A DNA stretch of 63,843 nt, the filler included, from Folioceros fuciformis (lineage: Eukaryota): the NCBI GenBank assembly GCA_049999805.1. It is 6 parts of 6 records of this genome, joined end to end, with 100 filler letters (N's around TTAATTAATTAA, not from the genome) between each part and the next. Parts side by side here need not be neighbours in the genome. Positions count along the whole stretch, not along the records: positions 4,822 to 17,778 come from JBNGIO010005489.1; 5 more parts are not named here. One strand, 5' to 3'. Shown here one piece after another: positions 1,081-28,449 of the stretch. Position 1 is the first letter of the stretch, and every line of letters starts with the position of its first letter. Below the pieces are notes generated by a model. It saw nothing but the letters and a program-made list of their open reading frames with translations. It was not told the DNA's origin and did not search any database. The position numbers were made by a program, and so were the translations under genes.

Positions 1081-1119
1081 GAAAGATTAGAACCACTCAC
1101 GCCTATTGGTCATGAAAGA

Positions 1120-2057
1120 TTAGAACCACTCACGCCTGTTGGTCATGTGCTCCGTAGCTCCCGAATCAATGTACCATTCTTCGACTTGCTTGGAGGGATG
1201 ATGTGTGCACACAAAAGCTTCCTCATACTCTTCCACGAAGTTTCCTTGACTCTTTGCCTTCTCATCTCGATCTCTCTTGAAGCAATTCCTTGCAAAATGT
1301 CCAACCTTGCCACAGTAATTGCAAGTGAGATTAGATCTACGATTTCTCCCCGTGAATGAAGAGGCCTCCGTTTGTTTCACAAGGTTGGCTGATCCGTCGC
1401 CAATCTTCTTGGTCACAAAGGCTGATTCTTCCGATGTCTTCCCCTTCTCCTTTCGTTTGGTCTCCTCGTGGAGTAGTCTTCCCACAACAATCTCAAATGT
1501 AAGAGCATCTACTCTTGATTCTAAAGCTACAATCAAATTGTTATATGACTCCGGCAAGCTTGCAAGAAGAGTCATCAGAAGGTCATCATCCGTCACAGGA
1601 GCTCCAATGACTGCCAATTGTTGGGAAAGACTCCTCACCTTGTCTACGTGCTCAATCACACTATCACTCTCACCCATTTGAATGGAAAAGAATCTACGCC
1701 TTAAGAACAAGCGATTCACAAGGCTCTTGTTCTCATACAAAGCCTCTAATTTCAACCAAGCCTCTCTTGCTGATTTGCAAGTGGTCACATGCATCAATTG
1801 TGCATCTTCTAAGTTGAAACAAATATTTGCAAAGGCCTTGCCTGCAAGCTCATCCCACTTGGGCTGTCTCTCCGCTTCATTTGGACGCTCCTCGGTCCCC
1901 GACACAATTCTGCAAAGGCCTTTTTCAGCCAACAACATTTGCATCTTGAACTTCCACAAGTTGAAGTTGTCACCTCCAAACTTTGAGATAACTTGTAGAG
2001 TGACGGTCCCTTTGAGATAACTTGTAGAGTGACGGTCCCTTGGGTGTGTGGGCCCAT
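1120..2057 (-). pseudogene. Copia gag plus protease N-terminus
   Basis: ORF 1120-1959 has a Copia gag (UBN2-type) region, CCHC knuckle and WYIDSGATEHM. The N-terminus MGPHTQGTVTLQVISK starts at 2057 and is frameshifted by a 29-bp tandem duplication. Confidence 0.9.
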
Positions 2058-2061
2058 AACC
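2049..2061 (-). promoter_or_regulatory. Primer binding site complementary to an internal (half) fragment of initiator tRNA-Met
   Basis: GGTTATGGGCCCA directly after the LTR 3' CA. This matches the half-tRNAiMet PBS type known from Drosophila copia and the plant Osser/Bryco lineages. Confidence 0.85.
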
Positions 2062-2466
2062 TGTTGAGATGTCACCCCCGCCATGCTCAAAGGAGGTTAA
2101 AACAAGTTAGTTGAAGCAAGATGCAGAATCCCAAAACTAAGAGCACTATAACAAGGCTCTTAAACTCAAATAAAAAGGAGAATTACAAAAACAACACAAT
2201 ACAAGTCAAGAGGGAGTTAGACTACACATAGAGGGAGTTAGACTACACATACTAAGTGGGTTCATCCCTTCTTTTATGGACCTATGGGTGGCACTCTCAT
2301 TTCGTGCTCAATATGGGATAAATGACCCCAAACCCTACAATACTTTTTTTGCCTAACATAGCAAAGTCTAATAAGCTATATATATATATTAATCATAACC
2401 TTAATCACTCTTACCACTAATTAGTACAAACTCAATAAGCTGGATTAGCACTAATTAATCTCAACA
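2062..2466 (-). repeat. 5' LTR of the Copia element (405 bp)
   Basis: TGTTGAGAT...ATCTCAACA 9-bp inverted termini, adjacent to the PBS. Confidence 0.85.
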
Positions 2467-2480
2467 TTAATTATGCTTAA

Positions 2481-4721
2481 CACTAAGGTCCAACAACAAC
2501 TAACATACGTCCATTCTAGGCTTCCCTACCATACGTCCATTCTAGGCTTCCCTACCATACGTCCATTCTAGGCTTCCCTAAGGTCTCTAACATACGACCC
2601 TAAGGTCCAACAATAACTAACATACGTCCCTAAGGTCCAACAACAACTAACATACGTCCATTCNNNNNNNNNNCTAAGGTCCAACAACAACTAACATACG
2701 TCCATTCTAGGCTTCCCTACGTACCGTTGGGCTTACAACTAACAGACGAGTCTCAATTCTGCGTCCATTCTAGGCTTTCCTACGTGCCGTTGGGCTTACA
2801 ACTAACTGGGCTTCCCATTCTAGGCTTCCCTACGTACCATTCTAGGCTTCCCATTCTAGGCTTCCCTACGTAGGAAGCCCAGGCTTCCCTAAGTACCATT
2901 CTAGGCTTCCCTACGTACCGTTGGGTTTACAACTAACTGGGCTTCCCATTCTAGGCTTCCTTACGTACCGTTGGGCTTACAAGGATCTGAGCTTCCCTAC
3001 GTACCGTTGGGCTTACAACCAACTGGGCTTCCCTACGTACCGTTGGGCTTACAACCAACTGGGCTTCCCTACGTACCGTTGGGTTTACAACTAACTGGGC
3101 TTCCCTACGTACCGTTGGGCTTACAACTAACTGGGCTTCCCTACGTACCGTTGGGCTTACAACGAACTGGGCTTCTCTACGTACCGTTGGGCTTACAACT
3201 AATTGGGTTTATGGCTTCCCGTTTCGGGCTCGTAGGGCTTACAACATATGGCTTACAACTAACTGGGTTTATGGCTTCCGTTTCGGGCTCGTAGGGCTTA
3301 CAACATATGGCTTACAACTAACTGGGTTTATGGCTTTCCGTTTCGGGCCCGTTGGGCTTACAACATATGGCTTCCCGTTTTGGGCCCGCTGGGTTCCGGC
3401 TGGGTTTACAACAACTACTAACTGGGTTTATGGCTTCTCGTTTCGGGTATGTTGGGCTTACAACATATGGCTTACAACTAAATGGGTTTATGGCTTCCCG
3501 TTGGGCTTACAACATATGGCTTACAACTAACTGGGTTTATGGCTTCCCGTTTCGGGCCTTGGCTGGGTTTACAACAACTAATTGGGTTTAAGGCTTCACG
3601 TTTCGGGCCCGCTGGGTTCCGGCTGGGTTTACAACAACAGCTAACCGGGTTTATGGCTTCCCGTTTCGGGCCCCGGCTAGGTTTACAACAACAACTAACT
3701 GGGTTTATGGCTTCCCGTTTCGGGCCCCAGTTGGGTTTACAACAACTAATTGGGTTTATGGCTTCCCGTTTGGGGTCCGCTGGGTTCCGGCTGGGTTTAC
3801 AACAACAACTAATTGGGTTTATGGCTTCCCGTTTCGGGCCCGCTGGGTTCCGGCTGGGTTTACAACAACAACTAAATGGGTTTATGGCTTCCCGTTTCGA
3901 GCCCACTTGGTTCCGGATGGGTTTACAACAGCAACTAACTGGGTCTATGGCTTCCCGTTTCGGGCCGGCTGGGTTTACAACAACTAACGGACGGGAGCTA
4001 GGTTTATGACTTCCCACTTCGGGCCCGCTAGGTTCCGGCTGGGTTTACAACAACTAAAAGACGGGAGCTGGGTTTATGGCTTCCCGTTTCGGGTTCCCGT
4101 TGGGTTTACAACAACAACTAACTGGGTTTATGGCTTCCCGTTTCGGGCCCACTGGGTTCCAGCTGGGTTTACAACAACTAACGGACGGGAGCTGGGTTTA
4201 TGGCTTCCCGTTTCGGGTTCCGGCTGGGTTTACAACAACTAACNNNNNNNNNNTTTATGGCTTCCCGTTTCGGGTTCCGGCTGGGTTTACAACAACTAAC
4301 GGATGGGAGCTGGGTTTATGGCTTCCCGTTTCGGGTTCCCGCTGGGTTTACAACAACAACTAACTGGGTTTATGGCTTCCCGTTTCGGGTTCCCGCTGGG
4401 TTTACAACAACAACTAACTGGGTTTATGGCTTCCCGTTTCGGGTTCTCGCTGGGTTTACAACAACAACTAACTGGGTTTATGGCTTCCCGTTTCGGGTTC
4501 CCGCTGGGTTTACAACAACAACTGGGTGGCAACTAACCATAGCTGGGTGGACGGGAGCTAGGTTTACAACAACAACTAACCATAGCTGGTTGGACGGGAG
4601 CTGGGTTTACAACAACAACTAACCATAGCTAGGTGGACGGGAGCTGGGTTTACAACAACAACTAACCATAGCTGGGTGGACGGGAGCTGGGTTTACAACA
4701 ACAACTAACCATAGCTGGGTG
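2481..4721. repeat. Composite tandem repeat / satellite array with units drifting through 36, ~63, 54 and 43 bp
   Basis: Units such as GTACCGTTGGGCTTACAACTAACTGGGCTTCCCTAC (36 bp) and GCTTCCCGTTTCGGGTTCCCGCTGGGTTTACAACAACAACTAACTGGGTTTATG (54 bp) share an ACAACTAAC core. Confidence 0.95.
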
Positions 4722-4821: not shown

Positions 4822-6378
4822 AATCTAACGTGTTAGGGACAGTATACGTGCACACACACACCTCCCTTATATTTTATACAATTGATACATATTTCATACG
4901 TATATAGTATACATATTCCCGTGTTTCTTTTCTTTTTATTTTCCTAATTTCCTTTTTCTATTTTCACCCCTATTTTTTGGAGTTTATTCCAGAAATTCCA
5001 ACTGAGCTCTATTTCACCTGCTTTCTTCTCCTCACGGTTCGGGATCAGCTTTCCATGGTCGAGGAACCATTTTGGCTGGAAACCAATTCTACTGAATAAG
5101 TTGCCAATTTCAGGCCCAATTCCGGCTGCTAACCCCACTTCTTCCCACCTCTTCTCTATCTTCTCCCACTGCGCACACTCCTCCTGTGCAGGCAGGCTCC
5201 ATTATTAAGTGGGAACAGTTGCAGGGGAAGGCTTTGCGGGCAGCCATCCAGCAAGGAAGAGGCGGCGTCCGCTAGAACTTTGAAGATTAGGCATCCTTCA
5301 AAGTCTCAGGGTTGTTTAAGAGGTGGTAGATACTTGTGGTGGTAGGGTTAGCAAGTTGTAGGGCCAACTCATTGGTGGCAGGATGTGCTAGGAAAGTCTA
5401 TATAAGTGGTTGGTCACAGCTGGCTAGGCTAGTGATCCTATTAAAATAATATTTTCATGCTAGAGAGAGGTGAAGTTAGAGAGAGAGAGGCTTCTTTAAG
5501 ATTAGGTGAGCCTGTAGGAGGCAGGTTGTCACTTTGCGAGTTCTCTCAGGCTGTCCCTACTTGGAGACAGTAGTGTGTGCCGGTTGTGCATGTGTGCAGC
5601 GTTTGGTAAAGCTTTGAGAAGTGGTGGCCAGGGTTAAGAGCGGGGTCCCTTTTAATTCTTGATTGTGCTCTCCGTGTTGTGTTCCCATGATATGTCATTC
5701 TCGTTTCCTCGTAGGGCTAGAGTGAGTGCCGACCATGCTTGCATGGTGTTTGGTAGGATCGTGGGTGGCGGCATGCTTTTCTTTGGGGTTAGTCTAGTGA
5801 CTCTTGCTAGGTAGGGGGAGTGAATAGGGACATGTAGGAGGTAGTGGTGACGTTGCTGATTGCTAGTTGCTGGTGTTGAAGTGAGTGAAGTGAGTGATGA
5901 AAGTTGCAGATTTAAGAGGTTAGTGTCGTTGTAATGATTGGAGTGAGTTTGTGGGCACCAAGAGAGGTGCAATTTACCGCTGGATAGCAAGGATTGTCCC
6001 ACACCTTATTGGAGCTGGAGGGGAGCCCTCGAATCCGTCATTGAGTCGATTGAGTCCGACCCTCCATCCACAGCAGCTAGGAACCCCATCGCTCCTTCGT
6101 GGGAACAAAACTCAATGTCTCAACAACAATGGGATAAGTGTGGCCGCTAAAGGTTGAACCCGTTGGCAAACAATGCCCGGGGTTTTGCCACCACAACAAG
6201 ACCATGGGTCAGTAAATATACTTGTAGACAATTTGTCTAACCTTATTGCTAACATTCTGTGACTCTGTTGTTGAAGATACATGTGCCGGAGGTCTAGATA
6301 AACAAACCCATAAAGGTTAGTCATTTTTAGTATCTTAGTGTTTTGGGAGTAGCTAACCTAGAATACAAAAGAGGAAAA

Positions 6379-8272
6379 ATGGTTGATCCCTCATCTAGCT
6401 ATGGTGGGGAAGGGTTTAGGGAAAATGATAGATTTGGTGGGTATGATTACGATATATGGGTAATCTGAATGCGTGGAGCTTTACAAAATAAAAAGCTTTG
6501 GAAGATAGATGTTAGTGATGAAGACTTCCCAACTACTACCACCACACCTACCACTGCTGAAAAGATTAAACAGGACGAATGGGTGGCTAAAGATGAAGCT
6601 GCCATGTTCCTCGTCCAGAGTGGTTTAACCTTTGATATGCTGAGGCACACATCCAGATGTAAAACCTCAGCAAAAATCTGAACACAACTTCGGGACCTAT
6701 ATTCAGGTAGCAACACAATGAGTCAGTTGAAAGCCTTGCGTAATTTACAGAATTGCAAGATGAAAGATGGAGAATCAGTAGAGAAGCACCTTGGTCATTT
6801 CAGAACACTTGTCTCCAAACTGGAGAGTGCCTCAAATGAGAGTGTCAAAGAAGATATGCTAACCTTATACTTCTTACTATCTCTCCCAGAATCAGGGTCA
6901 CATTTTGTGACATATTTTAATGCTTCATATCTTCAAACCTCAAAACTGGCAAAGGCAGCGAATGCTACACTTCCTGAAACCACCTTTGTAGAGGTAGTGG
7001 GAGCATTGCTCCAAGAAGAAACAACAAGAGGTTCTAGTAAATGTTCTGGAAAACAGCAAGCCCTCTACACATCCAATAGGGGTCATGGGGGAGGAAAACC
7101 CTACAGTAGAGGTGGAGGCAATACATCTAGAGGTGGTGGCTCACAAGGATAAGGAGCCAATGAAAGAAAACTCAAAAGAACAGGAACTTGTAACTGGTGC
7201 AAGTTACCTGGTCATTGGGAACATGAGTGTAGAAAGAAGCAATCTAGTGTTCCTCACAAGGAGGGTTCATCAATTGTTGAGACTCATGAGGTTGTGAAGA
7301 AACAACCTACCCCCTCTGCCCTCACTATAGGTACGAGAGTCTTTGCAAGTTCATACTTGCATCCTGCTTGTCTGTCAACAAAATTGAAGGTAAGCCAAGC
7401 TGTAGATTGGTACTTAGATACAGGTGCTATAGCACACATTTGCTTTGACGAAGGATCTTTTCAAACATATTAGTCAGTTAAGGATCAATACGTTTAAAAC
7501 ACCTGGGAGATGACAGATCCTTAGTATCACCTAGCCGTGGCACAATAGACTTATTAGTTCTGTGAGGTGCAGTACTAATACTGCATGACGTTTACTATGT
7601 GCCAGACATGACTAGAAATCTAATCTCAGTCAGAAAGTTGAATACTGACAATAACTGTCACATGCTATTCACGAGAACTGAGTGTCAACTGCTGGATGCA
7701 TTTGACCATAGAATAATACTTGCCTATGGTTCTGAAGATCATGATTTATTTCGTCTTCATACAAGTAGTGGTCCTCCAACCTCTCACTTCGCTCAAGATG
7801 TCACCACTGTACCTACACAACAAATAGACAAGTCTAAGTTATGGCATGCAAGACTAGGTCACCCTCACACAGCAGAACTACATAGGTTAGCTGTTAGTGA
7901 CCTATATCAAGATGGACCAATTGGAACGTTGGCTCCACTCCCACTTTGCAAGTCCTGTGTTCTTTCTACAAGACATCAAGCTGCTTTTAAGAATAAAGCA
8001 CCTCACAGGGCTTCATAGGTTTTAGAACTTGTGCACACACATTTGTGTGGCCCACTTTCATAAGAATCCATAGCAGGTGGGAGATATTTCCTTACTTTTA
8101 CAAAGGACAAAAACATGTTTGTCACTACCCACATTATGAAACAAAAAAGTGAGTGCTTTAGACATTTCAGAGATTATCTAAAGTATGCTGAAAGGTGGAC
8201 TGGAAAGCGGCTAAAAACCTTGAGATTATATAATGGGGGAGAGTTTACCTCCAATGAATTTCAGGCTTTCTG
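6379..8272 (+). pseudogene. Degenerate Copia gag-protease-integrase (N-terminal half)
   Basis: MVDPSS..FRENDRFGG..YDIW, knuckle CNWCKLPGHWEHEC, WYLDTGA, LWHARLGH, VHTHLCGP, LRLYNGGEF. Several stops. Cut at 8272 by an LTR. Confidence 0.88.
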
Positions 8273-9533
8273 TGTGGTTGAAACCACCAAGGGGCCACAC
8301 TTCCCCTTATTATCGTTGCAGTCTTATGATTCGCTCCCAAGGGAGTGAACTAATGTCAAGGTTACCTACATCTCCCTAATCTCACCCTATCTATCAGCAC
8401 ATACCAAGTGCTATAGCAATAGGTCATAATTCTCGGTCCTGTCTTCGGCTCCTACCACAAAACCAACCCCAGCCTCAACAAAATGAGAACTCCAGCATTN
8501 NNNNNNNNNNNNNNNNNNNNNNNNNNNNNNNNNNNNNNNNNNNNNNNNNNNNNNNNNNNNNNNNNNNNNNNNNNNNNNNNNNNNNNNNNNNNNNNNNNNC
8601 TTCCAAAATCTGCAACTCAACCCTTCTCTCCTGCAATTTGGAACACAACAGCCTTCCCTCTTGCAGCCTTCAAGGCAAAGGCGAGGCCTAGGGCTGGGTA
8701 GCCTCCTTGGCTCACGGCCCTGCAACCTCACCTCAGCCAGCATGCAAGGTGGTCAGCCATTGCGGATCCGGCCACACGAATCTTGGCAGTCTTGGGATCC
8801 TCCACGTTCCCCTAGTGGCAAGGGAAATCAAGACCTTGGTTTAGTCTCAACCAGCTCAGCGCCCTAAGCCAGGAGTTCTGCACCCAAGGTCCAGGGAAAT
8901 CGCACCGTAGACAGCCCCTCCTCAATGGCAGGTCTAGCCTCTTATACTACCTTGGCCCAAACCTCCATCTCTATCTCTTAGGGTTAGCCTCAATCAACCA
9001 CCCAACAATCTCTCTCTGACCTAAGCCGGCCCTAATTCTGACCTAAACCTAACTCTGACCTAAGCCGGCCCTAATTCTGACCTAAACCTAACTCTGACCT
9101 AAGCTGGCCCTAATTCTGACCTAAACCTAACTCTAACCTAAGCTGGCCCTAATTTTGACCTAAACCTAACTCTAACCTAAGCCGGCCCTAAGTCTGACCT
9201 AAACCTAACTCTGACCTAAGCCGGCCCTAATTCTGACCTAATAGGTGTTGTGTCCCATGGACACCACTGGGTGCCCTTACCAAAATTGACCAACCTCTGA
9301 AGACTACCAAAATGGTCAGTGCCTCTCAACACTCTCCCTCCTCTCTCAAATCATTCCATCCCTTCTCTCAGATCATTCCAGCAACCCTTCAAAGATGCGT
9401 CTCGCCTTACCATTAATCTAGCTACTACTCTAACCTAATCTTTTAACCATTTCACCATAGGGTTCCCTTAGAGATTCCCAAAAAGAGAAATCCTACCATT
9501 TTCCAAGGACCTATTCAGCATGTGGAGTCCACA
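8273..9533 (-). mobile_element. Gypsy LTR (family A, short version, contains a gap)
   Basis: TGTGG...CCACA termini. Both ends and an internal ~170-bp block match the LTR at 38911-44791. Contains a 39-bp tandem array at about 9017-9240. Confidence 0.85.
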
Positions 9534-10235
9534 GTAACCTAACATGAGAAGCTTTTTAGCCTTATCTGACAATTTTTTCCTCTTCTCCTGAGGTATGAAG
9601 GCATAAGCCACACAACCAAAAGTTCGCAAGTGTTGAACCGATGGTTTGCGACCTGTGAAGGCCTCATAGGGGGTTTTACCTACAACAAAAGTTGTGGGTA
9701 ACCTATTTCTAAGTTATGTTGAAGTCATAATGGCTTCTGCCCAATATGACAAGGGAAGTTGAGCAGAATGTAGCAGCGAAGATGTCATTTCCTGCAAAGT
9801 TAGGTTTAGTCAATTAGCAACTCCATTCTGTTAAGGGGTATAGACAACTGTTAGTTGTCGACCAATGCCTGGTGCAAGTTTCACTCCACAAGGCAACAGC
9901 AGACGGGAAAGGAAGCTCTTTTTGTTTGGCAAGCACGCAAGAATCACAGAAGGCAAGTTCTTTAAAGCACTTGGGCAAAGGCTCTCTGTAACATTCCGTG
10001 CTGGACATCTTAATAAGCTTATTCTTATTAGCATGTCCCAAACAAGCGTGCCAAAGTTGTGCTAGTGCTTACTGTGTTTTGGCAGCCACAAAAGCACTGT
10101 GAGGAGATTGGTAACATAAGTCCAATTGATATAAGTCATCGACCAAGAGCCCTTGAGCAACAAGATCACGGGCACCCTTATATTTGAGAGTGCAGCCCTC
10201 ATCTGCAACTAGAAGATCAAACTCACGAAGTCTGA
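9534..10235 (-). pseudogene. Copia GAG-pre-integrase/integrase fragment (its protease end is at about 11012-11150)
   Basis: LWHACLGHANKNKL..CDSCVLAKQKELPFP, NGVA, YWAEAIMT, TPYEAFTGRKPSVQHLRTFGC. Upstream piece reads HEKVWLGDELTRTGLK...DHVLYVP. Confidence 0.8.
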
Positions 10236-11154
10236 CATGGTATCAGAGCTCATGTCTAGATTTATATAGTATCCATATACACTCATATGTGATGACAAGT
10301 ATGTCGTAACTCCGAAGTCTAAACGTAATCCATATTTTATATTTTCTATGAAATATGGATTCCATGTAGAAAAGGAGACTACAAAATCGTCATATATATA
10401 GTTTAGGAGTTTTACTTATCAGAGATTAGGCAAAAATGCCTCATCGCAATTTTGAAAGGCGTATTGTGTTTTCCAAAAATGCCAGATTTGAATGTCCCGC
10501 GTTTTGGGAACAGAACCCCTGCATAACTCCGAGAACCACTAATCTCCATCGTGCAAGGAACCAACAACATCAGAATCGCAACTGTGCTTCACCTTGACAG
10601 CCTGAGAGATCTCGTTGATAGGAGTCCAACCAACAAGAGCCACCTTGTCTTTTCCTGCACCGACGATTTCTTCTCAGTCATCCGTAAAGAAGTCACTCTG
10701 CGACCAGGTGACATCAAAACCCTGCAAATTCAAGTGCAGAACCTTATCAACCGGAACGAAAGACATGATCATCTCACTTTTGGAGCGTCTTCTTCTGGGG
10801 AATAATCTCAGGATTCAACGTCGAGCCCACGACCTTGGATCAATTCATCATCAATCTCTGCTTTGAAACGCATGCCTGGTTGCGAAATCCAGCAATCATC
10901 ATCGCTGGAGAGCATACTGCAAAAAGGAGAGATGTGAAGAGGCACGATTCATTGCTCATGCCTCTCTGTCAAGTTACAGCGTGGAAGGCATTTTCCAAGC
11001 AAGGCCGAATCGGTACGTAGAGAACGTGGTCCAAGTGAAGCGTTGAGCCATCTTTGCGTCAGAAAGTGCAGGATCCTGTGCCGAAGATCTTCAAACCTGT
11101 ACGGGTAAGCTCATCTCCCAACCAAACTTTCTCATGAGTACGTGCTGGAGTGCA

Positions 11155-11460
11155 GGTTAGTCTTTTCAGAACTAGGGATTCCACTCCCCACATGCACGAC
11201 TATCTACACCAACAATCAAGGCTCAATGGCATTAGCCAAGAACCTTGTGTTTCATTCACGAACGAAGCACGTAGAAGTTGAATATAAGAGAACTGGTGGG
11301 AGTAGGAACCATAGCACTTGAGTATTTATCGACACAAAGCAACCCAGCAGACATTCTCACAAAGGCACTTAGTAGAGATGCTCACCAAAGACACATTCAA
11401 TGCTTAGGTATGGGAGAGTCAGAAGCTCTCTTATCCGACAGCAGCAGTAGTTCAGTATAA
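11155..11460 (+). pseudogene. Copia RNase H C-terminal fragment
   Basis: ELGIPLPTCTTIYTNNQGSMALAKNLVFHSRTKHVEV...NPADILTKAL. Confidence 0.85.
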
Positions 11461-11589
11461 TTCTCTAAGGCCTAGAAACGCGAGTCGAAGCTACCATGGT
11501 CAGAAGGGTAGCCAAAGTCCACTAATTGTCTAGAACGCATAGACTCGGGTTCGGACTCCTCCTCTTCCTCGTAGGAGTCGTGGCCATAA

Positions 11590-12321
11590 CTACTGGAAGG
11601 GGAAGAAAATTTTCTCATCTAGTCTTGGAGAGTTGCGGCGACAACGTTCTTCATACGAAATCCGTTCTTCAGACTCAAGATCAGCTTCTTCTTCAAGTCT
11701 TATGTTAGACCCTGTATAGAAGAAGTGGGAGCAAACGTAAGATATCATCACAAGATAGAATAACAGGAGCAACCAAAACAAGAAAGGTTCATAGATGCTC
11801 ACTATATATGCTAACAACATGATCTGGATCAAATTTGCAGCCATGCACGTGAACCCTTTTCATGGTGATCTCAGTACAACCTAGCCAAACCTTATACCAT
11901 ACAGGTGAGCGAGGATGCTTTATATTCCCACAACTGACAATTCTTGTTTCACAATTTGTGTCAGTAGGTTTAGGGAACACAACAGGTAAAGCAGAACGAG
12001 ACTCATCATCAAAATAGGTAAAATTAGGTTGCTTCGGCTTCGGAAGAGGTTTAGCCGTCGCCTTTGCCTTAGGCACAGGTGGGGTAGAAGGGCAACCCAT
12101 GTCGTAACCGGCTTTAAACGCAATAGCCTCAGTAGTCTTGCGCCGCTCCAGGAACTCCTTTGTAGTTCCCTTGGGTCTTCCCACTCCCCGCTTCACATCT
12201 CTCGCAGTAGTTGGTGTCGAAGCTCCAAGAGTTGTAGTTGTCTAGCGGCAAACCGTCCCTTGGAATCCCATGGCTAATGGCGCTTAGGATTGGGCCCGTA
12301 ATCGCAATATGAGGAAGACAT
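11590..12321 (-). pseudogene. Spliced antisense accessory gene downstream of Copia RNase H (copy 1; intron 11712-11802), unknown function
   Basis: GTGAGC donor and CTTCTTCTATACAG acceptor join ORF 11789-12196 to ORF 11590-11844 in frame (..KVWLG..HVVSIY-R-SNIRLEEEADLE..). AT-hook-like RGVGRPKG present. The 5' part has a stop and a frameshift. Confidence 0.6.
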
Positions 12322-12649
12322 GGTGACGAGAAGAAGAACAATCCTGAGTTGCGGCAGCTCAGAGTATGGGAGAAATGAAATGAAAAGGTCGGTGTTATAA
12401 GGGACGCGCACCTCATCTCTATCGACTTCACACTAGAGCGTAGCATCTTGATCCAAATTGACAGGAGTGCGAGAGTGTAACCAAGTACAGAAGATAATAG
12501 CCATAAAGCTCAAAATTGAAGGTGCAGCTGAACCACAGTCTCTCACGAGTAGCCACCAACAGATTGAAGACTGGATAAGAAATCATTACCAACAAGTGGG
12601 AGTAAAGGAATACATGTGTTGGATAGATGATTAGGGTTTAGTAGTCTAG

Positions 12650-14106
12650 TTAAGCTAAGAGCTTTAAAAGACATACCCAAGAATATGGCTTGCCTCTCCT
12701 AAGTCTGTCATGTCAAAATGACCATTCAACTTTGACTTCAACACTATTAGTCCCAGCAATTAGCATATCATCCACATAGAGGACCAGAATCAGCAAGCTT
12801 CCATCCTTAGCTTGCTTCGTATAGAGGCAATGATCCTCATCGCTACGTTTGTAGCCTCGCACCGGAATCCAGGTACCAGCTACTATAGTCATTAGTAGAA
12901 CTAATCCAGCAGGCAGTAAGTATCTTGACTGGCACCTTTGGTTCTCCAGGATGTTTCTCTTTGACAGCGGCATTTGCTTGAGACTGTTGTTGTGGCTCAC
13001 TTGCCTTCTTTTTACGGCATTCTCTTGCCCAATGGCCAGGGGTGCCACACCAGTTGCACAAACCTGGTCTTTTGGTGGAGGAGCTGGCGGAATGAGTTCG
13101 CTAACCAGAACCTCCAGGTGGGTTATTTCCACCTTTGAATTTTGTCTTGCCTTTAGAGAAACGGGAATTAACAGCTAACACTCTCTTGGCTTTGTTCTAA
13201 GAAGCAGCACCAGAGAGAGTGCGGGCCTGCTCGACCAGATAGAGTGTGCCGATGATGTCCTCAACAATGGGGATAGCAGCGATAGTAGCTCCAGCAGCCG
13301 GCTTAACAGGGCTGTTTTGAGCTGTGACGAAACTCTGATATGAAGGTGGGAGGCTGATAAGTAGCTGGGATACAACTTCGACCTTCGGCATCTTATGTCC
13401 AGTCAGCGACGTGATATGGGCTCTCAGATGTCGGAACTTGCTAGTATGTGTAGCTATCTTCTCTCCTTCCTTCATCTTTAAGGCATAAAATTCCATACAC
13501 ACAGCTGATAATGACATCATATTGGTGGAATGATAGGTGGTTTCTAACTGATTCCATATGTCTGTAGCTGAGTCCAGATTCTCAACATCAGGCACAAGAT
13601 CTGCATCCAATCCATTGATGAGTAGGCCCATGGCCACTCCATTATGGTTAACCCATTTGGAGTGATCATCAGGGTGAGTAACTGGGTCGTTCTTGAATTA
13701 TGTGGAGTCATGAATAGTGCTGATTCTTTGTTGTTGTGGCACAAGAGAATTTATGCAAGAGAAGAGTGCTCCAGTTCTCCATCTGAATAACGATTCCATA
13801 TTCTTTCCTCTCTTACGGCAACGCTCCTTGTACAGGCGTTCAATCTCCTGATTTTTATTGAGAGTGTGAGCCGATCCGCGAGGAGTGCTGCGCTGGGCCA
13901 CACGACGCCCAAGCCAAACTGCAAGATATTCGTGCTTGTGGAGGTCCAGAAAATCGATGATAGGAACAGTTGCTCAATGTCTTCGTGGGTAGACTTCCTG
14001 ATATTGATTTTTTGGAAGTGCACCACGTCAACTTCCCCTACGGTTGCCCTGCCTCGGCATTTTTAGAATTTGTCAGTAGGGCTTGGAGCACCATGCTCTG
14101 ATACCA
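12650..14106 (-). mobile_element. Internally deleted Copia (PBS, leader, gag, then protease start fused to RT middle)
   Basis: PBS at 14095-14106, gag 13197-13637, knuckle CNWCGTPGHWAREC, and WYLDSGA joined directly to RT LVLYVDDMLIAG and HFDMTDLGEA. Confidence 0.85.
14095..14106 (-). promoter_or_regulatory. tRNA-iMet PBS
   Basis: TGGTATCAGAGC on the minus strand, immediately after an LTR terminus (TGTAAT at 14107 on the plus strand). Confidence 0.85.
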
Positions 14107-15099
14107 TGTAATTTCTTGAGTAGGAGCCAGATAATTTGCTTGAGCTTTTCTGACTTGATTGATAATAATAACAAAAAACTTTTAAGTATTATGTCTACAT
14201 GACTCTTCATGTGTAACCCTCATTTGTATTACCACTATATGTGTGGTCCTGTGTTTAGGTTTAACTAAACGATACTAGTTTATCATAACACAACAGGTAG
14301 ACCTTGTGTAGACATGGATGAAATTTGCTCTAGAGCATCCTTGTACTAGTTTCAGCTTAGGTGGACATATTGGTATTTTTATCCACCCTTTTGTGAGAAG
14401 ACATGCTTGTTGGAGAAAGACCCTCATCCATATTTGCTTCCTTTGATACTTCTTGGTGAGAATGGCACCTCCTTGAAGACTTGTTACCACTCCTTCTTAC
14501 TCGAGCTGGTTTTGGAAAATGGTTTTTCCTTGGTCTTGCAACAATGTGTTCTCAAGAAATATTTTTCCCGTTCCCTCCTAATGATACAATGGTCTTGGAG
14601 TCAACACGGTGATTTTGAGTTGAGTGGAGTCCTCATACTTGCACATCAAAAAGCATCCCATGTTTCCTTCTGTCCAACATTCGAGTTGAGGGTTTTTGCA
14701 AACTTTTGGCACAAGATGTAATTGCAAAGTGGACAACATCTTCCTCTCTCCAGTTATTCGAGCAAATTTTCATGCACAAAAGGATGCACTAAGGATGCAC
14801 AGCCTTTGGTACTCAGGTCTGCATGTCAGAAGGCAACTTTTTGGTTTCCCAATCTAGCACTTGAGCAGCAAACTTCTAGACGCTCTTGATACAAAATGCC
14901 AATGCACGATCCTCAACAGCCCATTATTGCTGATCTTTCGAGCTGGATTTTGTGCAAAGGGAGCGCGATGAGGACTCACAACATTTGTAGGTGTCGTGCC
15001 TAACATCCCCTGATCCCCACAATTTAGTTTCCAGTACATTGAGGGTTTTGCAAAAGGTACCAAAGGAGAAACGTCGTGGGCAAACCGCCCACACGTGTT

Positions 15100-16330
15100 G
15101 CACAGCGGGACTCACGATGGATGAGGTTGGCACGAGGTCTGCCTCTTCCCTTTTTCTAAGGAAGATTTGTTGACGAGTTGTCCAGGTGTGATGCCATCGC
15201 CCCTCACGTCTACCAGACCTACACCAACCAACGTTTTGGGGAAACCATAACCACAAGTGCACAGGATCTCCCATTTTTCGATTATCAGCGGATGTGAGAA
15301 AAACGGTGCACTTTCACTATGCAAGCATATGACATGTCTGGTTTGAATTCAATATAAATAGGCTCTCTGGTTACCCCTAACACTTGTTCCTTAGTGCCAG
15401 CAAACGTCGCAGTCTTCACCGCACTTGGTTTTAGTTTGTCACCATACAGCTTTAGAGCTTGTTGCACTTGCATTCCTAATGACACGAGTTCAGCACCAGT
15501 GTCAACCAACACACATTCCGATGCAAAACCATTAAAGGTTATCTACCTGTTTAGGTTTTTTACCATGGCAATCCCACTTTTGCCCCTAATCTCAAGTTTC
15601 AAGTGTTCTCCACACAGGTTGACCAAACTAGCCACGGCCACCGGATTGCCATCTCTCCTCTATGGATTCGAACCAAGTGACTCGACTAACTCTTTATGGC
15701 ACTCTGGCCTCTAATCATCTATTGCTCTTCATACTTCCTTTCTCTCCACTCGCTGAGCTATTGCCCATGGCTTAAATACCAATATCCTCATCTTCTATTC
15801 TTGTATCGCTAGTTGGAACGTGACCATGCTAACCCCGAGATCCCGCAGACTCATCATGAGTAGATCCATTAGTTTTTCAAGCGTCATTTCCTCACTCAAT
15901 GTCTTGTGTGTTGCTTGGCTTTCATCGTCACCTTTAAGTTGGTTGAAGGATTTGGGCATTCGATGCTGTTTTCAATTTTCTAGCACCCGCTCCTGGACTC
16001 TTTCTCCAAAGTCTTCCTTCCCATGGTTGTCTTCGCCCAACTTGTTGGCAACTAGTGTGCACACGTCCACTTCATCTTCCGAGTCTTCCTCCTCTTAGCT
16101 TTCTCCAATGGGCAAGCTCATGCTCACACTCATGGCTAACTGTTCTTGCAATCGATGCACTTTGCTCAATAACTCTTTGCACGTATAGTTTGCCACCGAC
16201 TCCGTTTTTCCTACATATCATTCTCTGATGCCTTTGGGTTTGAGCTTTGGGTGTGCTTGCTAGCATACTGCTTCAATGTGGCCAGTCTTTCCACATGCCT
16301 TGTGTAGAGGAAAAAAATATTCGCGAACCC
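15100..16330 (-). pseudogene. Decayed Gypsy gag/aspartic protease, similar to the DNMT-bearing family
   Basis: CGKTGHIEAVC knuckle and FNGFASECVLVDTGAELVSLG protease resemble CQKTGHVEVVC and VNGFAPRVVLLDTRAKLVIIG at 26.6-27.8 kb. Confidence 0.6.
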
Positions 16331-16731
16331 CTTTTTTGAGTGACAAATTTGGTGGATTTTGATTTTTTTTTTTGTGGACGTGTGAGTGAAACGGCTTAGC
16401 TTGTGAATAAGACTTGGGTATTTGTACCCAAAGTCTCCTTGGACCATGGTACTTTGGGCAAATCGGTGGCCAAACCAAGTGTTGGGGGGTGGCTAGACGT
16501 CCTTGGCCTTTGGCGGAGAGAGNNNNNNNNNNNNNNNNNNNNNNNNNNNNNNNNNNNNNNNNNNNNNNNNNNNNNNNNNNNNNNNNNNNNNNNNNNNNNN
16601 NNNNNNNNNNNNNNNNNNNNNNGGGAGTAGGTAGTTGTGGACTTAGGCTGGTAAACAGGGGTGGCGATAGCAGGTAGCCAAAGCGGCTACCGGTACTCGA
16701 AGGACGACGCCGGTAGTCAAAGGGAGACGAT

Positions 16732-17335
16732 GGTTACCAAAGGGAGGTAGCCGAAGTTTGACGACGGTTGCCAAAGGGAGGTAGCCGAAGTTTGACGACG
16801 GTTGCCAAAGGGAGGTAGCCAAAGTTCGACGACGGTTGACGAAGGGGCTATCGGTAGTCAAGCAACAACGCCGGTTGCTGAAACCCCTACTTGCACTAGG
16901 AGGCCTGGAATAGCAATAATTGCAGCCAGAGTAACAGGAGGCAACTAGCATCTTGGGAAGAGAGAGAGTAGACGGCCAAGATGGGTCAGCCAGCAGCAGG
17001 AGTGAGATGGATATTTTTGGAAGGATTTGCCCAATCAACAGCATGGAAGGAGAGCCTAAAGATTTTGTGTGGTAGGGGAAGGTGGGCCAGAAGAATAAAT
17101 AGGAGGAGAGAGAGTGGCACCAAGGTAAGCCATGAGTGGTTGCATCTAGAAATAGTATTTAGATAAGATTTAGTAAGATGCTATTTTGACCTGGTGCTGC
17201 CTGCCATTAAGAGCATCTAGGAGGAAAGAGATTGGCGCTAAGGTAAGCTAGGAGTGGGTGCATCTGAAAATAGTATTTAGATAAGATTTAGTAAGATGCT
17301 ATTCTGACCTGGCGCCACCTGCCATTAAGAGCACC
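16732..17335. repeat. Short tandem and direct repeats in LTR-like sequence
   Basis: 34-bp unit GGTTGCCAAAGGGAGGTAGCCGAAGTTTGACGAC x3, and a ~95-bp direct repeat at about 17121 and 17239. Confidence 0.75.
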
Positions 17336-17778
17336 TTTTTTAATGTTGACTATTTTAGAGCTAGACTTTATGACGGGCCGTGGCTCCCACTCCTGGAAAC
17401 TTTGTACAAAGGGGGCCTATTGGTGCCTCTCTGATTAGCAAATGTTTGAGACTCCTCCCGGTTGAGATCCCCTACGCTGTCCATGGCGGGACTAGAGAGG
17501 TCTGGGTGAGGCAGTGAGTGCGAGACGCTCCTAAGGGGGGGTTGAGGACTTTTGCTCCACAAATAAAAAGTGAGGGGGACGAATCCACCGTTGCTGGAGT
17601 GGAAGGAGCACCTCCTTCCCTTATTCCCTGAACGGCCAGTTGAGTTTGTAGTAGAAAGTGAGGGGGACGAATCCATTGCTGCTGGAGTGGAGGGAGAGCT
17701 TCTCCTTCCCTTATTCCTTGAATTGATTGACTGCATTTTTAATCTGGAGTGTGTGAGAGAAGAGAGTGTGTTGAGAAG

Positions 17779-17878: not shown

Positions 17879-18993
17879 GAGCTCTTCTAGAGGGTATAAA
17901 TACCCCCTTGAGCTCCTTTGCCAACTACTCTCAATGTGACCTCTTTTTCTCCTCTCCTCTCTACCTCCTCTTCTCCTTTCCTCCACCATGCTCCTCTAGT
18001 GATCCTACATGTACTGCTTGCACTTGGCCTTCACCACATTGTGCAGAGAGTGCAAAAGCAGAATGGAGCTCTTGGATGCCTACCTACATGCTTGGACGCA
18101 GGAGGAGGCTACTCCGTGGTCGTGGATAGGCATTTGCCTGCTTCGCTCTCTGTAGTAATGGGGGGGGGGGGGGGAGGGGGGGGGATCTGAGCAGTGCCTT
18201 AGGGACGTGTGTGTTGTGGGGTGAGACCATGTGTAGGTTTGCCAAGGTCTCATGGGCTGTGAAATAAATGTGCCCATTTCATTCCCCACTATCGTTTGTT
18301 TGTCCCTTTGTCCTCTCACATCGCATAGCGAGGAAGGCAAGAAGGAACGTCCCCTTGAGCAAGTTCTACATTGGAGTGGTGAAAACTCAAACAGGTAGGG
18401 GTGTGTATGGAGGCGACATATGTGTGCACAGTAGACAACACGGTGAACGCTGAGCTCTAAAGGAAGGATGCTGAACCCACATGGAGGAGACGGACTGAAA
18501 TGTGAGGGATAAAATAAGGGCACAAAGTAGATGTCCTGATTGGGACACCTACTTTGTGCCCCCTGATTGGGACACCTACTTTGTGCCCTACAACCGAAGC
18601 GGGCACAATGCAAGCTGCAACCACATTTCCCAGCCACATATAATAAACAACAGAGTTTAGGTCTCCAATCTCTTGCCACAGGCACGCAAATTTCCCCTAC
18701 TCAACTGCACTGCATGTACAAGGAAATGTACATCTGCCATCTCCTCCACCTAAAAGTAGATAGGTTATCTAAGTAGCCTAGCATTATAGAATTATTACAT
18801 AAAACAATAATTAAATGAGGGCGTTATGGATCACAAGATCCATAGCGCTAGATGTAAAGGGACGCAAACTGTGCCCTAACAAACTAACTCACGGGACACG
18901 AAAAAAGGACATACGGGCTCCAACAAACTAATCTTTTTTTATTCCCTCGCGCATCCTCTCCTTCCTTCCTCTCGATCCTGTGCAAAAGCTTCA

Positions 18994-21900
18994 TGGTATC
19001 AAAGCCATGACTGACCCAGTGACACCCCCCGGTCCCTCCAACACGTGCGCAACCTGCTGCAGCGCGAATTGCATCCAGAATCTTTCCCAAGATCAATTCC
19101 TAGCAACGTTTTTTTGCACTAAAGGGCGCATTTGCAAGATTTGGGAGCATGGCAGAGGATTTCCTCGCTGCTGCTGTTGAGCACTACAACGCCTAACACC
19201 TTCCAGCATGCTGCGACCAAGAGGAAGGGGCAATCGTGCCGTGAGTGATTCGTTTGCAACGAGACCTGGCCAATCTGTGGAGGAACAGCATCGCCGCCTG
19301 CCTCACTTCTTCTCAAATTCCTGCAACCACCCTGCATGTACACACGACACAAAGAACAGAGGGCAGGTTAGGCACATCTCTAAACCTAATCCTCTTGCAG
19401 GGCTACGCAACCAAATTAGGAGGGAGATAGCGCACTCATGTGCGATTTCTATTCAAGCTTCCATCCCTGCACGTTCATGCTCTTGAAGTATGTGCACTCG
19501 TGATCTTAACACATCTCCCTGTCCATTTGACCACCTGCTTAGTGAGATTAATGATTCAATAAAGTCTCATGCTGTCCAGACCAGACAGCACATTGCTGAG
19601 TTGAGAAACAAGGTTGAGAGCACAAATAATCACATTGCCCACCTTGCACATCAGGCTCACAATTTGTCATCATATAACCCGGCACACGTTGACACATGTC
19701 CACACATGCCACAATCGGACATGAAAAATGATTTTGGCACTGCAAAAAGTCTTTCCTAGGCATATTCATCAACTATCTAGATGCCTTGGAGGAGGAGGCA
19801 AGCATCCCACTGTGATTCTGTTTTTTTTCACTTGTCATATAATAACAGGAACCGAGGCAACAGTAATCCTTGAGGTAGAGGCTGTGGTAGAGGCGCGAAT
19901 AAGGGTGCTGCGCAAGGAAGAGGAGATCAAGACCCAAGCTTTCCCTTACCTGTAGATCCTCTGTCACTCTATAAGATCGAAGCACAGACTGACTCCTCAC
20001 AAGGCAGCACATCAACGTCACTGTCAAATTTACAAACAACTCAAATTCATCATCTTGCACAAACAACCCTGAGACCACAAAATACTTGGGCTGAATCCAT
20101 TGCACAAGCCACTAGGGCAGCCTTAGCAGCACAGCTAGTTAGCACTATGGCACAAGCACATCCAAATACAGTCACAAACAACACCACAGTGCATGATTTT
20201 AAGGTAGACATTAAAGAGAAAGACAGGTTTACTGGCACACACTTTGATATCTGGTCTCTTAGAGTCTAGACTATCTTAAAAGAAAATGATCTCTGGGGCG
20301 TTGTCACTAGGGCTGTACCAAAACCTCCTCCAATAGCAACATTTGCTGAGCAAGATGCTTGGGCCAAACGTGACGTTCGGGGTTTAAGTGTCATCCAATA
20401 TGCCCTTGATGGCACGATGATGCACCACACACGTGATGCTGAGTCCACCACAGCTGTGAGGGACTCCCTATCCCAAGTATATCAAGTAGTCAATGGTTTG
20501 TCCTTGGTCAGTGCAACCAGAGACTTCTACAACTGCAAAACGCAAGAGCAAGATTCAGTTGAGCATCACATCATCAAGTTCAGAACTTTGAGATCAAATC
20601 TCTCCTGAAGTGGCACAAAGACAACAGAGATGCAAGCAGCAGTTGCCTTATTACTATCTTTGTCAGAGAGCTATTGAACCTTTGTCAGCAATCAGAGTTC
20701 GATGTTGAGGAGCGCAGCACAGGTTGCACTAGCAAGTCAGCAGCCAACTGTGACACTGTCTGACATTATTGGAGCTCTTCTCGAGGAAGAGTCCACAAGG
20801 AAAGCAAGCAGAGGTACCTCCCACAGAGGAGAGTCATCGAATCGAGCACTTTACATGAACAAAGGCCCTAAGAGACAGCCTCGTCAGCCTTGGCAAGCAA
20901 ATTCCAATAGTGGAAACTCCAACACATTCAAGAAGCATCCCTCACCTACAACAGGAAAGAAGAAGAGACCATGTAACTGGTGCTTGATCCCTTGTCATTG
21001 GGAGGCAAAGTGCCGCAAGAAGAAATCCGGTGAGCCCAGGTGTTTGGCTCCTGCATCTGAGATCAATGTGGTACAGCGAAAACCTAATGCACTCCTCACT
21101 ATATGCATGATATCAACCTCTACAAACAAGAGTGTCTGGTTTATTGATAGTGGAGCCTCATCCCATTGTTGCCATGACAAGAATGCATTTTCTGAGTATA
21201 AGAATCTTCCACCTGGTCAGTTTGTCCTTCTTGGTGATGATAGTGGACTTCATATATAAGGCATTGGGACAGTGCCTATCCAGCTAGTTGACAGGACCAC
21301 ATTGCATCACTTAGATGTTCTTCATGTTCCTTCTATGGTTAAAAACTTAGTCTCTGTCCGCAAGCTCACAGTCCAACATGTCTTAGATGTGTCTTTTTCA
21401 AGCCTGCACTGTGTCATCACAGGTCCATAGCATAAGAACAAAATTCTAGCTAAAGGCACGCCTCGTCATGACCTCTATCAACTAAATGTCACATCTAAGC
21501 TAGGACACCAATTCCCCAAGGAGCAGGCACATGTCAGTCAAGCCACTAAAGCCAAGGACCAAGTCATGTTGTGGCACTTTCACCTAGCACACATCAACTT
21601 CGACAAACTTCAGAAAATGGTGAACAACAATGCGTTATACCAAGAGAAGTTCATGCGTCAGTTTGTCGAGAAACAATTCTGTGAAGCATGTGTCTTTGGC
21701 AAGCATCACTAAGCCCCGTACAAGGATGAGAATCCCACAAGGGCGCCTAAACTCTTGGAGCTGGTTCACTCCGACCTCTGTGGCCCTATGTCAGTTCCTT
21801 CACTTGGCGGTGCTCTGTATATGTTATCTTTTATCGACCGCTGTAATTGATATGCTATCATCTATCTTATCAAGCAGAAGAGCCAGACCTTTGGCTGTTT

Positions 21901-22074
21901 CCAAGAGTATGTTACCTTTGCTCAACGCCAGACTGGCGAACTCCTTAAGGCTTTGCGTATAGATGGCGGTGGTGAGTACAATTCCGGTGAGTTCAAAGAT
22001 TATTGCAAGGAGCTGGGGATAGCACGGCAGCTCACCGTGCCGTATATATCCTCGCAAAATCCCATAGCTGAATG
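18994..22074 (+). mobile_element. Degenerate Copia (PBS, long 5' region, gag, protease, integrase), cut by an LTR insertion
   Basis: PBS TGGTATCAAAGC at 18994-19005, IKEKDRFTG..FDIWS, CNWCLIPCHWEAKC, WFIDSGASSH, VHSDLCGP, RIDGGGEY, SQNPIAE. Confidence 0.88.
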
Positions 22075-23481
22075 TGTGGGGAAATATTGTACCTGGTGGT
22101 ACTGCGAGGTCCACACAAACCCTCTTTGTCGTTATAGCTCAGGGATTCGATCCCAAGGGAATGATTTGTGTTAAATAACATGGGTTTCCTTTAAAAGTCA
22201 GTAACTACCTAGGATAGACCTTACCTACCCCAGCTCTACTACCTGGTCCAACTACCCCTACCCCTCAATTGACCTAGCTACCGCGGACTCTACCTTACCT
22301 CTCTAGCCTCGCTTAGCTACCGGGGTAGGGAGCTCTACCGGGACCTCCACTATCGGTAGTCGATTCCACTACCGAGGCAGGACCCACCCCACCTTTTAGC
22401 TAACACGCGCTGGTCAAGTATTGCTCCGCGGTTCTATTAACAATTCCGGGTGGCGTTTTAGTCGTTCCTTGTTCTCCTCGGGACCACACACAACCTGACA
22501 CCCTCTCATTCACCACAAACCACACCACTACTTTCACGCGACGTTCCCCACACACACATGCCCGAAACCCACTCAGGTGGACGTACTCCGCAGTTACTTT
22601 CTCACTCAAAAGTCGGCGCTATCGCTTAGTAGCCTCACCGCACTTTCTCACGCCGTTACTTCCGATCAGTCCTACTCTTAGTCACACCACACTACGCAAC
22701 TTGCATTCACTGTTCCACTCGCGAGAATCTCTCGCGGCGCTTACAACATCCATGCAGCCCCTCACACTCTGGAGCTCTCCCGGCATTCACTCTTCATAAC
22801 CCGTCTATTCAGGGTTGGTTCCGACACACATACACAAGACGATCCCACACACGCAGACATAGGCAGTCACCGCCCAACAAAACTCAACTCCAACATCTCC
22901 TCAGACAGTACAACCCGACGTTCCGCCCCCGGGGCGCAGCCTCCACTGGCTTCTTTGCTCCTTCAGTGTTCTTGTCTCTACCTCGTCGCCACTCCTGTGA
23001 CTGCGTCACACACACTCACAAAGCCCGTTGGCTCAGCCCTCACGCTTCCTGATCATACACTCACTCTTCTCTCGACTCCTTCTCATTCACTCATCTCCCT
23101 CCCGATTCGCCCATGGAACCACTATCGCAGAGCAATGCGACCTCGATGCCACCACCTAGGAATGCTGCGTGCACTCGCCTGCCTGGATCTCCCTATCCAG
23201 CAGCGGTCATCGCCAAGCCCCTCGAGTTTGGAATGTCGGTTTTTTGCTACCTTTTGAGGCGCCAACAGGCCTCTTGTACATTGCGATGGCGGGTCTGCAC
23301 CCGCCATTAAGTTTGGTCCATGGACAGGGAGCCGCTCTTAATTACGAGTGGAGTCAGGTCCAAGAAAAAACATTACCTAGAGACTTTTCTAAGATTTGAA
23401 TCTAGGATGCAATTACTATCGCCGATTTTCATCGCCGCGCCCGCCTTCCTTCTGCCTGCCCACCTCTGGCTCTTCTTCCTC
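22075..23481. mobile_element. Gypsy-type LTR (family B), right end probably interrupted
   Basis: Starts TGTGGGGAAATATTG...GTCCACACAAACC...GATCCCAAGGGAATGATTTG, homologous to the start at 30176, and breaks the Copia integrase. Confidence 0.65.
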
Positions 23482-28020: not shown

Positions 28021-28449
28021 TAGATTGGTAGCAAGGGGGAAAGTGCATTGCTTACCTGCCTTTGGATTTGCATGGCGCCACACAAGCAGCCGAGGCCACA
28101 CTGGTGGTAAGGCAGGCTTGCATGGTGCAGATCCAGCCATGGGAGGATGGGACGCCACCCTCATTACCACAAGACCATCGCGCTCAAGTATGGCTAGCTG
28201 AGTGTGGAGAGGACGAGGATATTCTTGTTCCTGATTCTGAAGAAGATGCGCTGGGAGCGCAGCTGCACTCGTAGGCCCCATTTGGGGTTCTCACAGCCAG
28301 GAAGGAGTGTCTGCAGCAAGCTCAAGAGACCGTCACTCATGTCATGCAAGTACTGCAGCGGGCTCTCACAGACCCAGCCACAGGGGAGACAGCAAATGTT
28401 TCTCCTATTCAACAGGCCGGCCGTCATTGCTTGGCAAGCTACACCACAA

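Follow-up and report, generated by a model that had tools for sequence, protein, structure and literature searches.

Candidate spliced antisense genes next to the pol ends of two Copia retrotransposons in Folioceros fuciformis

Introduction

The extra genes carried by long terminal repeat (LTR) retrotransposons are the nearest equivalent of retroviral accessory genes, and the antisense cases described among them belong almost all to Ty3/gypsy elements. Antisense open reading frames (ORFs) between pol and the 3' LTR are known from maize Grande, rice RIRE2, Silene Retand and fungal Boty (PMC7264820), ORFs of this kind occur in 15 gypsy families of bean (PMC4093653), and 97% of the clusters in the Retand lineage encode TRP28 (PMC11963269). 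In these papers, the plant families named as carriers of such antisense ORFs are all Ty3/gypsy (PMC7264820, PMC4093653, PMC11963269), and the extra ORFs described for Copia elements are env-like and run in sense orientation (PMC4093653, PMC7264820). A limited search of the open-access literature returned no Copia element described with an antisense, intron-containing ORF. The present study concerns a stretch of 63,843 nucleotides (nt) from Folioceros fuciformis (NCBI GenBank assembly GCA_049999805.1), hereafter the window, in which two loci, designated A and B, each hold a candidate spliced gene that converges on a Copia pol stop encoded on the opposite strand.

The window consists of six scaffolds joined by N44-TTAATTAATTAA-N44 spacers (Table 1), with A on scaffold 2 (JBNGIO010005489.1) and B on scaffold 6. 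It is eukaryotic and rich in transposons: pieces of Copia gag, protease, integrase, reverse transcriptase (RT) and RNase H are spread across five scaffolds, accompanied by a gypsy RNase H-integrase and one host-like aldo/keto reductase exon. The closest public relatives of the Copia pol sequences, found in plants, Microbotryum, an arachnid and other assemblies, are 30-43% identical. Rfam gave no match anywhere in the window.

Results

Two loci with the same spliced design

At both loci a canonical GT..AG intron (91 nt at A, 85 nt at B) interrupts an Arg codon in phase 1, with Tyr encoded before it and Ser after it, and the two introns fall in the same column and the same phase of a protein alignment that was made without knowledge of their position. 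A first-pass annotation of this DNA had proposed the 91-nt intron at 11712-11802 within the Arg codon of a Y-R-S motif, its location some 130 bp from a Copia RNase H stop, and a parallel reading at 58.2 kb on an unlinked scaffold. All of this is present in the sequence, the two converging stops at A lying 129 nt apart and B repeating the layout with a phase-1 intron of its own.

The minus strand of locus A has a stop-free frame of 150 codons (12241-11792) that reaches ...HVVSIY. Exon 1 encodes a basic N-terminus with KRGVGRPKG, which includes the RGVGRPKG noticed at first pass, then a Pro/Lys-rich linker and a Cys/His-containing part with KVWLG; the split codon is assembled from A at 11803 and GG at 11711-11710 into AGG (Arg). 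As read by eye, without a script, the AG at 11713-11712 is apparently the first one downstream of the donor. The protein as read has 186 residues, an isoelectric point (pI) of 9.25 and an acidic C-terminal stretch, and its basic first third holds, besides the GRPKG motif, a KR...RRK pattern reminiscent of a bipartite nuclear signal. Protein B is shorter and acidic overall (121 residues, pI 5.45), likewise ends in an acidic stretch, and continues past the junction with SVWALEREAQE...; its acceptor is dictated by the downstream frame, which does not open before 58309, five bases ahead of that site. The introns are AT-richer than the exons at both loci (GC 0.38 against 0.46 at A, 0.24 against 0.44 at B), as fits real introns. 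The same can be said of the sharing of frame, junction and motifs by two loci that have no DNA-level match with each other, blastn of both regions against the window having returned self-matches only. A single Cys and a single His align between A and B, so zinc binding would be speculation.

The 5' end of A differs from what had been annotated. The ATG at 12321, proposed as the gene start, is out of frame with A and its frame terminates after 15 codons, and the one ATG that is in frame runs into the TAG at 12244-12242, so that this copy is without an intact start. In an alternative model, that TAG would instead belong to the acceptor of a weak upstream intron with its donor at 12433. At B, the region of the possible upstream exons (Table 1) is open in several frames on both strands.

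Similarity of the two proteins against shuffled and decoy sequences

Spliced A and B align over 82 residue pairs with 32 identities (gap costs 8/1). When the two spliced proteins were aligned, as had been advised as a check, 14, 9 and 6 of 2000 composition-preserving shuffles matched or exceeded the Smith-Waterman score of the real pair under three gap settings (z 3.3-3.9). Background ORFs reached that score at gap costs 11/1 in 1 of 762 cases with B as query and in 5 of 762 with A as query, and in none at 8/1.

The position of the intron adds to this. Decoy two-exon models were collected over the whole window under fixed rules (donor GT[AGT][AT]G, acceptor [CT]AG, an intron length of 50 to 200 nt, and a minimum of 40 open codons upstream and of 25 downstream as far as the stop), giving 733 models from 262 donor sites, of which 708 and 719 remained for queries B and A, respectively, once the query's own locus was left out. 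With B as query, 3 of 708 models attained the A-B score of 43, namely A itself and two that share the donor at 13816, and the junction fell in the same aligned column in just two, namely A and one decoy scoring 25. With A as query, four of 719 attained 43, and B alone had its junction at the matching column and phase. Each locus is the only model of the decoy set to unite a score in the top 0.6% with a same-column, same-phase intron; in the other high-scoring decoys the junction is offset by -36 or +17 or lies beyond the alignment. The first-pass view that chance is an unlikely source of the shared features is upheld at moderate strength, A being the only high scorer among the 2 of 708 models with a matching column and phase. 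Taken together, the sequence comparisons suggest a resemblance that moderately exceeds chance, and we regard the two loci as quite probably homologous.

The Copia neighbourhood

Each gene and a Copia pol stop on the other strand converge tail to tail, 129 nt apart at A and 50 nt apart at B. The Copia element beside B is uninterrupted from its tRNA-iMet primer binding site (63796-63785), which is preceded by an LTR end ...CATCA, to the pol stop at 58468-58466. Its RNase H end matches the RNase H fragment beside A over 11142-11285 and 11284-11412 with 50-53% identity (tblastn, E 3.9e-22). Exact tRNA-iMet primer binding sites are found at 10238-10249 (+), 14095-14106 (-) and 63785-63796 (-), each after an LTR end ...CA, compared to a chance expectation of about 0.008 for the exact 12-mer in the window (2 x 63843 / 4^12). 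The three sites are taken to mark three Copia 5' ends. At the site at 10238, at most about 76 nt of LTR remain before minus-strand integrase coding sequence. No direct repeat of 40 nt or longer pairs the A or B regions, and neither scaffold has an LTR pair; the LTR ends beside the three primer binding sites have no second copy in the window. From pol to the end of the scaffold or fragment, which is a minimum of 1.2 kb for A and 1.55 kb for B, the known LTR ends do not recur, and the 1.55 kb at B is also free of repeats.

Two further features were seen in these surroundings. On the Copia sense strand, 135 nt past the pol stop, is a 15-nt run of purines, GGAAGGGGAAGAAAA (11595-11609, +), which overlaps the last codons of A; it is no canonical polypurine-tract/LTR junction, because no TG follows the run. 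In the element beside B, the interval from the primer binding site to gag holds a 231-codon ORF (63006-63698, -) that has no Pfam family and does not share the frame of gag.

Table 1. Positions of scaffolds, candidate genes and neighbouring Copia sequences in the window
Feature	Position	Strand	Description
Scaffold 1	1-4721		
Scaffold 2	4822-17778		carries locus A
Scaffold 3	17879-32697		
Scaffold 4	32798-47872		
Scaffold 5	47973-56814		
Scaffold 6	56915-63843		carries locus B
Copia RNase H C-terminal fragment	11109-11460	+	roughly the final 100 residues, with a frameshift near 11285; stop 11458-11460
Spacer	11461-11589		129 nt between the converging stops of the A gene and Copia RNase H
Exon 2 of A	11711-11593, stop TAG 11592-11590	-	39 codons beyond the split Arg, acidic, SNIRLEEEADLE...
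Intron of A	11802-11712	-	91 nt, GTGAGC...pyrimidine tract...ACAG, canonical GT..AG, phase 1
Exon 1 of A	12241-11803	-	146 codons + 1 base (A) of the split codon
5' break of A	12271-12242	-	sole in-frame ATG 12271-12269, eight more codons, in-frame TAG 12244-12242
TATA-like TTATAA	12395-12400	-	74 nt upstream of ATG 12321, 124 nt upstream of ATG 12271; might be a promoter box of A
Possible upstream exons of B	57197-57701 and 57776-57874	+	uncertain
Putative upstream introns of B	57702-57775 and 57875-57962	+	GTATGT..CAG, 74 nt, and GTAAGT..TAG, 88 nt; both phase 1
TATA-like TATTTATAA	57904-57912	+	would instead suit a two-exon B gene starting at 57965; putative promoter element
Main exon of B	57965-58229	+	ATG at 57965, 88 codons + 1 base (A), MVWLG, ends HTKHTY
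Intron of B	58230-58314	+	85 nt, GTAAGT...ATAG, phase 1 in Arg (A|GA)
Last exon of B	58315-58412, stop 58413-58415	+	32 codons, acidic, helix-like, SVWALEREAQEYYEDY...
Copia beside B	58466-63796	-	nearly complete, decayed; seven ORF pieces cover gag, protease, integrase, RT and RNase H

Searches for relatives

No known family was recognized in either protein. Searched with hmmscan against Pfam at E<=1, A (146 residues) gave no family and B only BOP1NT (E 0.26), and at E<=10 there was no match, to AT_hook or any other family, for the 40-residue N-terminus of A or for the last exons. A homologous-protein search yielded nothing for A at E<=0.01 and no candidate for B; ESM Atlas returned bacterial hypothetical clusters only for B and no usable match for A; PDB sequences gave no match for A and four weak ones for B (E 0.39-0.98). 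A HMMER profile built from the A/B alignment found no credible relative among 1.84 billion representative proteins, its single match at E<=0.001 (P0001) being a 528-residue internal-repeat protein that was matched in five stretches and is considered spurious. Among the JGI metagenome contigs nothing matched with the A/B alignment, and the sole match of B (L001), in a GC-rich, bacterial-looking contig, was rejected since it comprised 21 residues in an alternative frame of another gene. The profile search that the first-pass annotation had suggested revealed no further member in the window, the representative proteins or the metagenome contigs. AlphaFold, run without an alignment, reached mean predicted local distance difference test (pLDDT) values of 39.1 for the B exon and 45.1 for the A domain with no confident fold, too low for use in a fold search.

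The core of an AT-hook is Arg-Gly-Arg-Pro flanked by basic residues. In A, the segment K-R-G-V-G-R-P-K-G has the G-R-P core and a basic flank, with Val in place of the first Arg, and it departs in this from the AT-hook (PF02178); it may still work like one. The pattern GRP[RK]G occurs once among 845 ORFs. DNA binding, as proposed at first pass, draws on this GRPKG motif of A, which has neither a counterpart in the 121-residue B reading nor a Pfam AT_hook match, and the proposal is conjectural. Elsewhere on scaffold 2, a canonical AT-hook-like KKGRGRPR was counted by motif in a 43-codon ORF (15027-15155, -), close to a frame (15285-15542, minus strand) that resembles a retropepsin (VLVDTGAE).

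Variants of the A region in sequencing runs

Logan contigs from DNA runs with the same organism label were compared with the A region, and several contig variants of 80-99% likeness were found; run X1 had six at 11756, three at 11888 and three at 12421. The presence of several variants indicates repeated DNA rather than a single-copy host gene. In run X3, the differences over 10400-13400 were heavily skewed (C>T 139 and G>A 107 versus A>G 27 and T>C 24), the other two DNA runs being balanced, and this bias looks like a conversion-type library or strand-biased damage, not divergence. The run guessed to be RNA contributed two records only, both on the high-copy RT piece at 12677-13076 and none on the A gene.

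Other features of the window

On scaffold 3 (26283-30262, +), an ORF with a match to C5 cytosine DNA methylase (28513-29058, E 3e-8) is followed directly by one with a weak match to RVT_1 (29024-30262, E 3.5e-4) and is preceded by a 467-codon ORF without any family. Judged by this order, the segment resembles a retroelement carrying a DNA methyltransferase; such retroelements have been reported. The Copia-rich part of scaffold 2 contains a tandem array with a 39-nt unit (8968-9279, +), displayed as six overlapping copies of a 117-nt register, and other short tandem arrays occur at 16712-16846 and 17091-17326.

Discussion

Based on the evidence from both loci, we consider it on balance probable that A and B are antisense accessory genes of a Copia lineage, situated in the 3' internal region of the element, with A a decayed copy and B a diverged homologue. 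On this reading, B would be intact though strongly diverged, and the Copia family that carries it a second one. The conserved family of Copia accessory genes envisaged at first pass is supported in part, in that homology is probable and both genes lie near a pol stop; as a putative family, it comprises two members and the variants of the A region. The anatomy, the common intron site and phase, the place beside pol stops, the lack of known relatives and the multi-copy state of A are observed, and the placement of the gene inside the element, its transcription, splicing, translation and function are inferred. The gene would be read from a promoter of its own toward the end of pol, and its transcript would converge on the genomic RNA of the element. 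Its intron would outlast retrotransposition because the splice signals are present only on the antisense strand and so are invisible in the genomic RNA. The product would be a small protein composed of a basic N-terminal part (AT-hook-like and nuclear localization signal-like in A), a Cys/His middle and an acidic C-terminal helix. With low confidence, and by analogy to the antisense ORFs of Grande (gene23) and Retand (TRP28) (PMC7264820, PMC11963269), it might associate with nucleic acid or chromatin in the nucleus and regulate the expression of the element itself. The fullest version of the proposal, in which a Copia lineage has kept a spliced antisense gene of its own across families with about 50% identical RNase H ends and encodes with it an orphan nuclear regulator, is possible but tentative.

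The observations that weigh against this reading are given here and, in the paragraphs that follow, together with the explanations they favour. Counted within the window, a gene of the A/B type accompanies two of the four Copia 3' ends, the profile search having found none at 53108 (+) and 55710 (-), and no third member came from the window, the protein databases or the metagenome contigs. At the second of these ends, a 127-codon ORF on scaffold 5 (55283-55666, +) does run tail to tail with a minus-strand Copia stop (55710-55712), 44 nt away. It was rejected as a third member, since it contains LRSLEDELEAA yet has no significant similarity by tblastn or by the A+B profile, and it has no Pfam family. 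In this genome, ORFs that converge on the end of pol may be more frequent than the A/B family by itself would suggest. Furthermore, a 182-codon ORF on the Copia sense strand (57710-58255, -) covers the main exon of B and the putative intron upstream of it, and the strand assignment of B depends for this reason on the splice sites and the similarity to A; the ORF passes through a T16/A16 tract, has no Pfam family and is probably a shadow frame.

The alternative that survives best, unlikely as we judge it, accepts that the sequences are borne by the element and denies that they are a working protein gene: they would be part of a long 3' LTR, a relic or a transduced piece, and any role would reside in antisense RNA. 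Double-stranded RNA formed with the 3' end of pol is an example of such a role, and it is the main alternative to a protein regulator; regulatory antisense RNA is discussed as an alternative for ORFs of this kind (PMC7264820). The 3' LTR ends lie outside both scaffolds, so that LTRs of more than 1.2-1.5 kb are possible. Both elements are decayed, copy A is itself a decayed copy whose 5' end is damaged, and some of the A variants are broken by a 148-nt deletion within exon 1 or by 1-nt indels. The low pLDDT values of both proteins point the same way. Against all this stands the persistence of protein similarity, open frames and a canonical intron in the same codon where no DNA match is left. 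Protein-level similarity without a DNA match is the pattern expected from selection on a spliced coding sequence, not from selection on an RNA duplex.

That the resemblance of A to B arose by chance, between unrelated open frames in decayed transposon debris and with the splice-site consensus aiding the coincidence of motif and intron, appears quite unlikely, even though the similarity is slight by several measures. A phase-1 A|G. junction tends toward Arg or Ser, and acidic low-complexity tails align readily. The blastp score of A against B is only 20.8 bits. Compared without splicing, the main exons take places 78 and 79 among 361 window ORFs under standard gap costs, and places 6 and 13 under lenient ones. 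An unrelated Arg-rich pair of unspliced ORFs from the two regions scores 40 versus 43 for spliced A-B, and two or three decoys, at 45 to 49, equal or exceed the A-B score. VWLG is unspecific, being present in 4 of 845 window ORFs, two of them unrelated; there is no database relative; and with 12 and 15 alternative two-exon models in the two regions, up to 180 pairs of models are implicit in the comparison. What chance does not readily deliver is the coincidence of the junctions, confined to 2 of 708 decoy models and absent from the other high scorers. Nor does it deliver splice sites that are essentially forced rather than chosen and that enclose AT-rich introns, or the unusual position and orientation beside a pol stop that both loci have in common.

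Very unlikely, finally, is the explanation that A and B are homologous and yet no cargo of Copia, that is, members of a separate repeated element or host family that came to abut a 3'-truncated Copia by nested insertion or insertion preference. No 3' LTR was found beyond A or B before the scaffolds end or break, nor was a polypurine-tract/LTR junction identified beyond either gene. Scaffold 2 around A is a mosaic of fragments in both orientations, in which the RNase H piece of about 100 residues next to A abuts a minus-strand Copia fragment at about 11150 and a deleted minus-strand Copia with gag and bits of protease and RT lies to the right (12676-14106). Among the contigs listed for the A region, moreover, none spans the RNase H piece and the A gene together. 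The explanation requires, however, two independent truncations 50-129 nt from the pol stop, each beside the same rare gene and both tail to tail; the Copia at B is continuous from primer binding site to pol stop; and among known proteins, whether cellular or of transposons, the gene has no relative. A decayed Copia gag-pol read backward, or a VWLG taken from the Copia beta-barrel domain (KVWLGDELT, 11062-11199, minus strand), is dismissed by hhalign of A/B against a 12-sequence Copia polyprotein profile (probability 0.08%), and tblastn with the seven Copia pieces had no match on the A or B exons.

Our analysis would offer transposon biologists a useful lead, resting on two loci in fragmentary scaffolds. 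A conserved antisense intron, if true, would be a clean marker of expression from an own promoter and of selection as a spliced coding sequence, and it would come with a tractable small protein for studying the self-regulation of an element. Should the link to Copia fail in the full genome, the finding shrinks to an orphan repeated gene.

HTLV-1 HBZ and HIV-1 ASP, of which HBZ is spliced, are encoded antisense to gag-pol near the 3' end and have an antisense promoter. A and B are likened to them by description; HBZ and ASP belong to another virus family and have their promoter in the 3' LTR. Antisense promoters of HTLV are mentioned in the work on plant elements as well (PMC7264820). Boty of Botrytis and Sclerotinia, again likened by description, is a gypsy element that provides a non-plant antisense ORF downstream of pol (PMC7264820). 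Within Ty1/Copia, the env-like ORF3 of SIRE/Maximus shares with A and B the position past pol (PMC4093653, PMC7264820), but it is in sense orientation and larger, with 381-393 residues in bean (PMC4093653). The TRP28 genes of Retand (PF04195) are antisense ORFs in a long region between pol and the 3' LTR with predicted DNA binding (PMC11963269). They differ in superfamily and size, and neither A nor B matched Transposase_28/TRP28 (PF04195) at E<=1.

The closest likeness is to the antisense ORFs termed aORF-3R (Grande gene23, RIRE2, Retand, PvRetro13 ORF2), which, like A and B, are found downstream of pol on the opposite strand. Most of these are without clear database relatives and have been suggested to have a nuclear or DNA-binding regulatory role (PMC7264820, PMC4093653). 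The aORF-3R genes are from Ty3/gypsy elements of plants and encode about 200-900 residues, whereas A and B are associated with Ty1/Copia, encode about 120-190 residues and have a conserved intron. A and B are best read as genes of the aORF-3R kind and not as a TRP28, an AT-hook protein or an env-like ORF. It is conceivable, and put forward here with reserve, that they would represent in Copia what the aORF-3R genes are in gypsy elements and what antisense proteins such as HBZ are in retroviruses.

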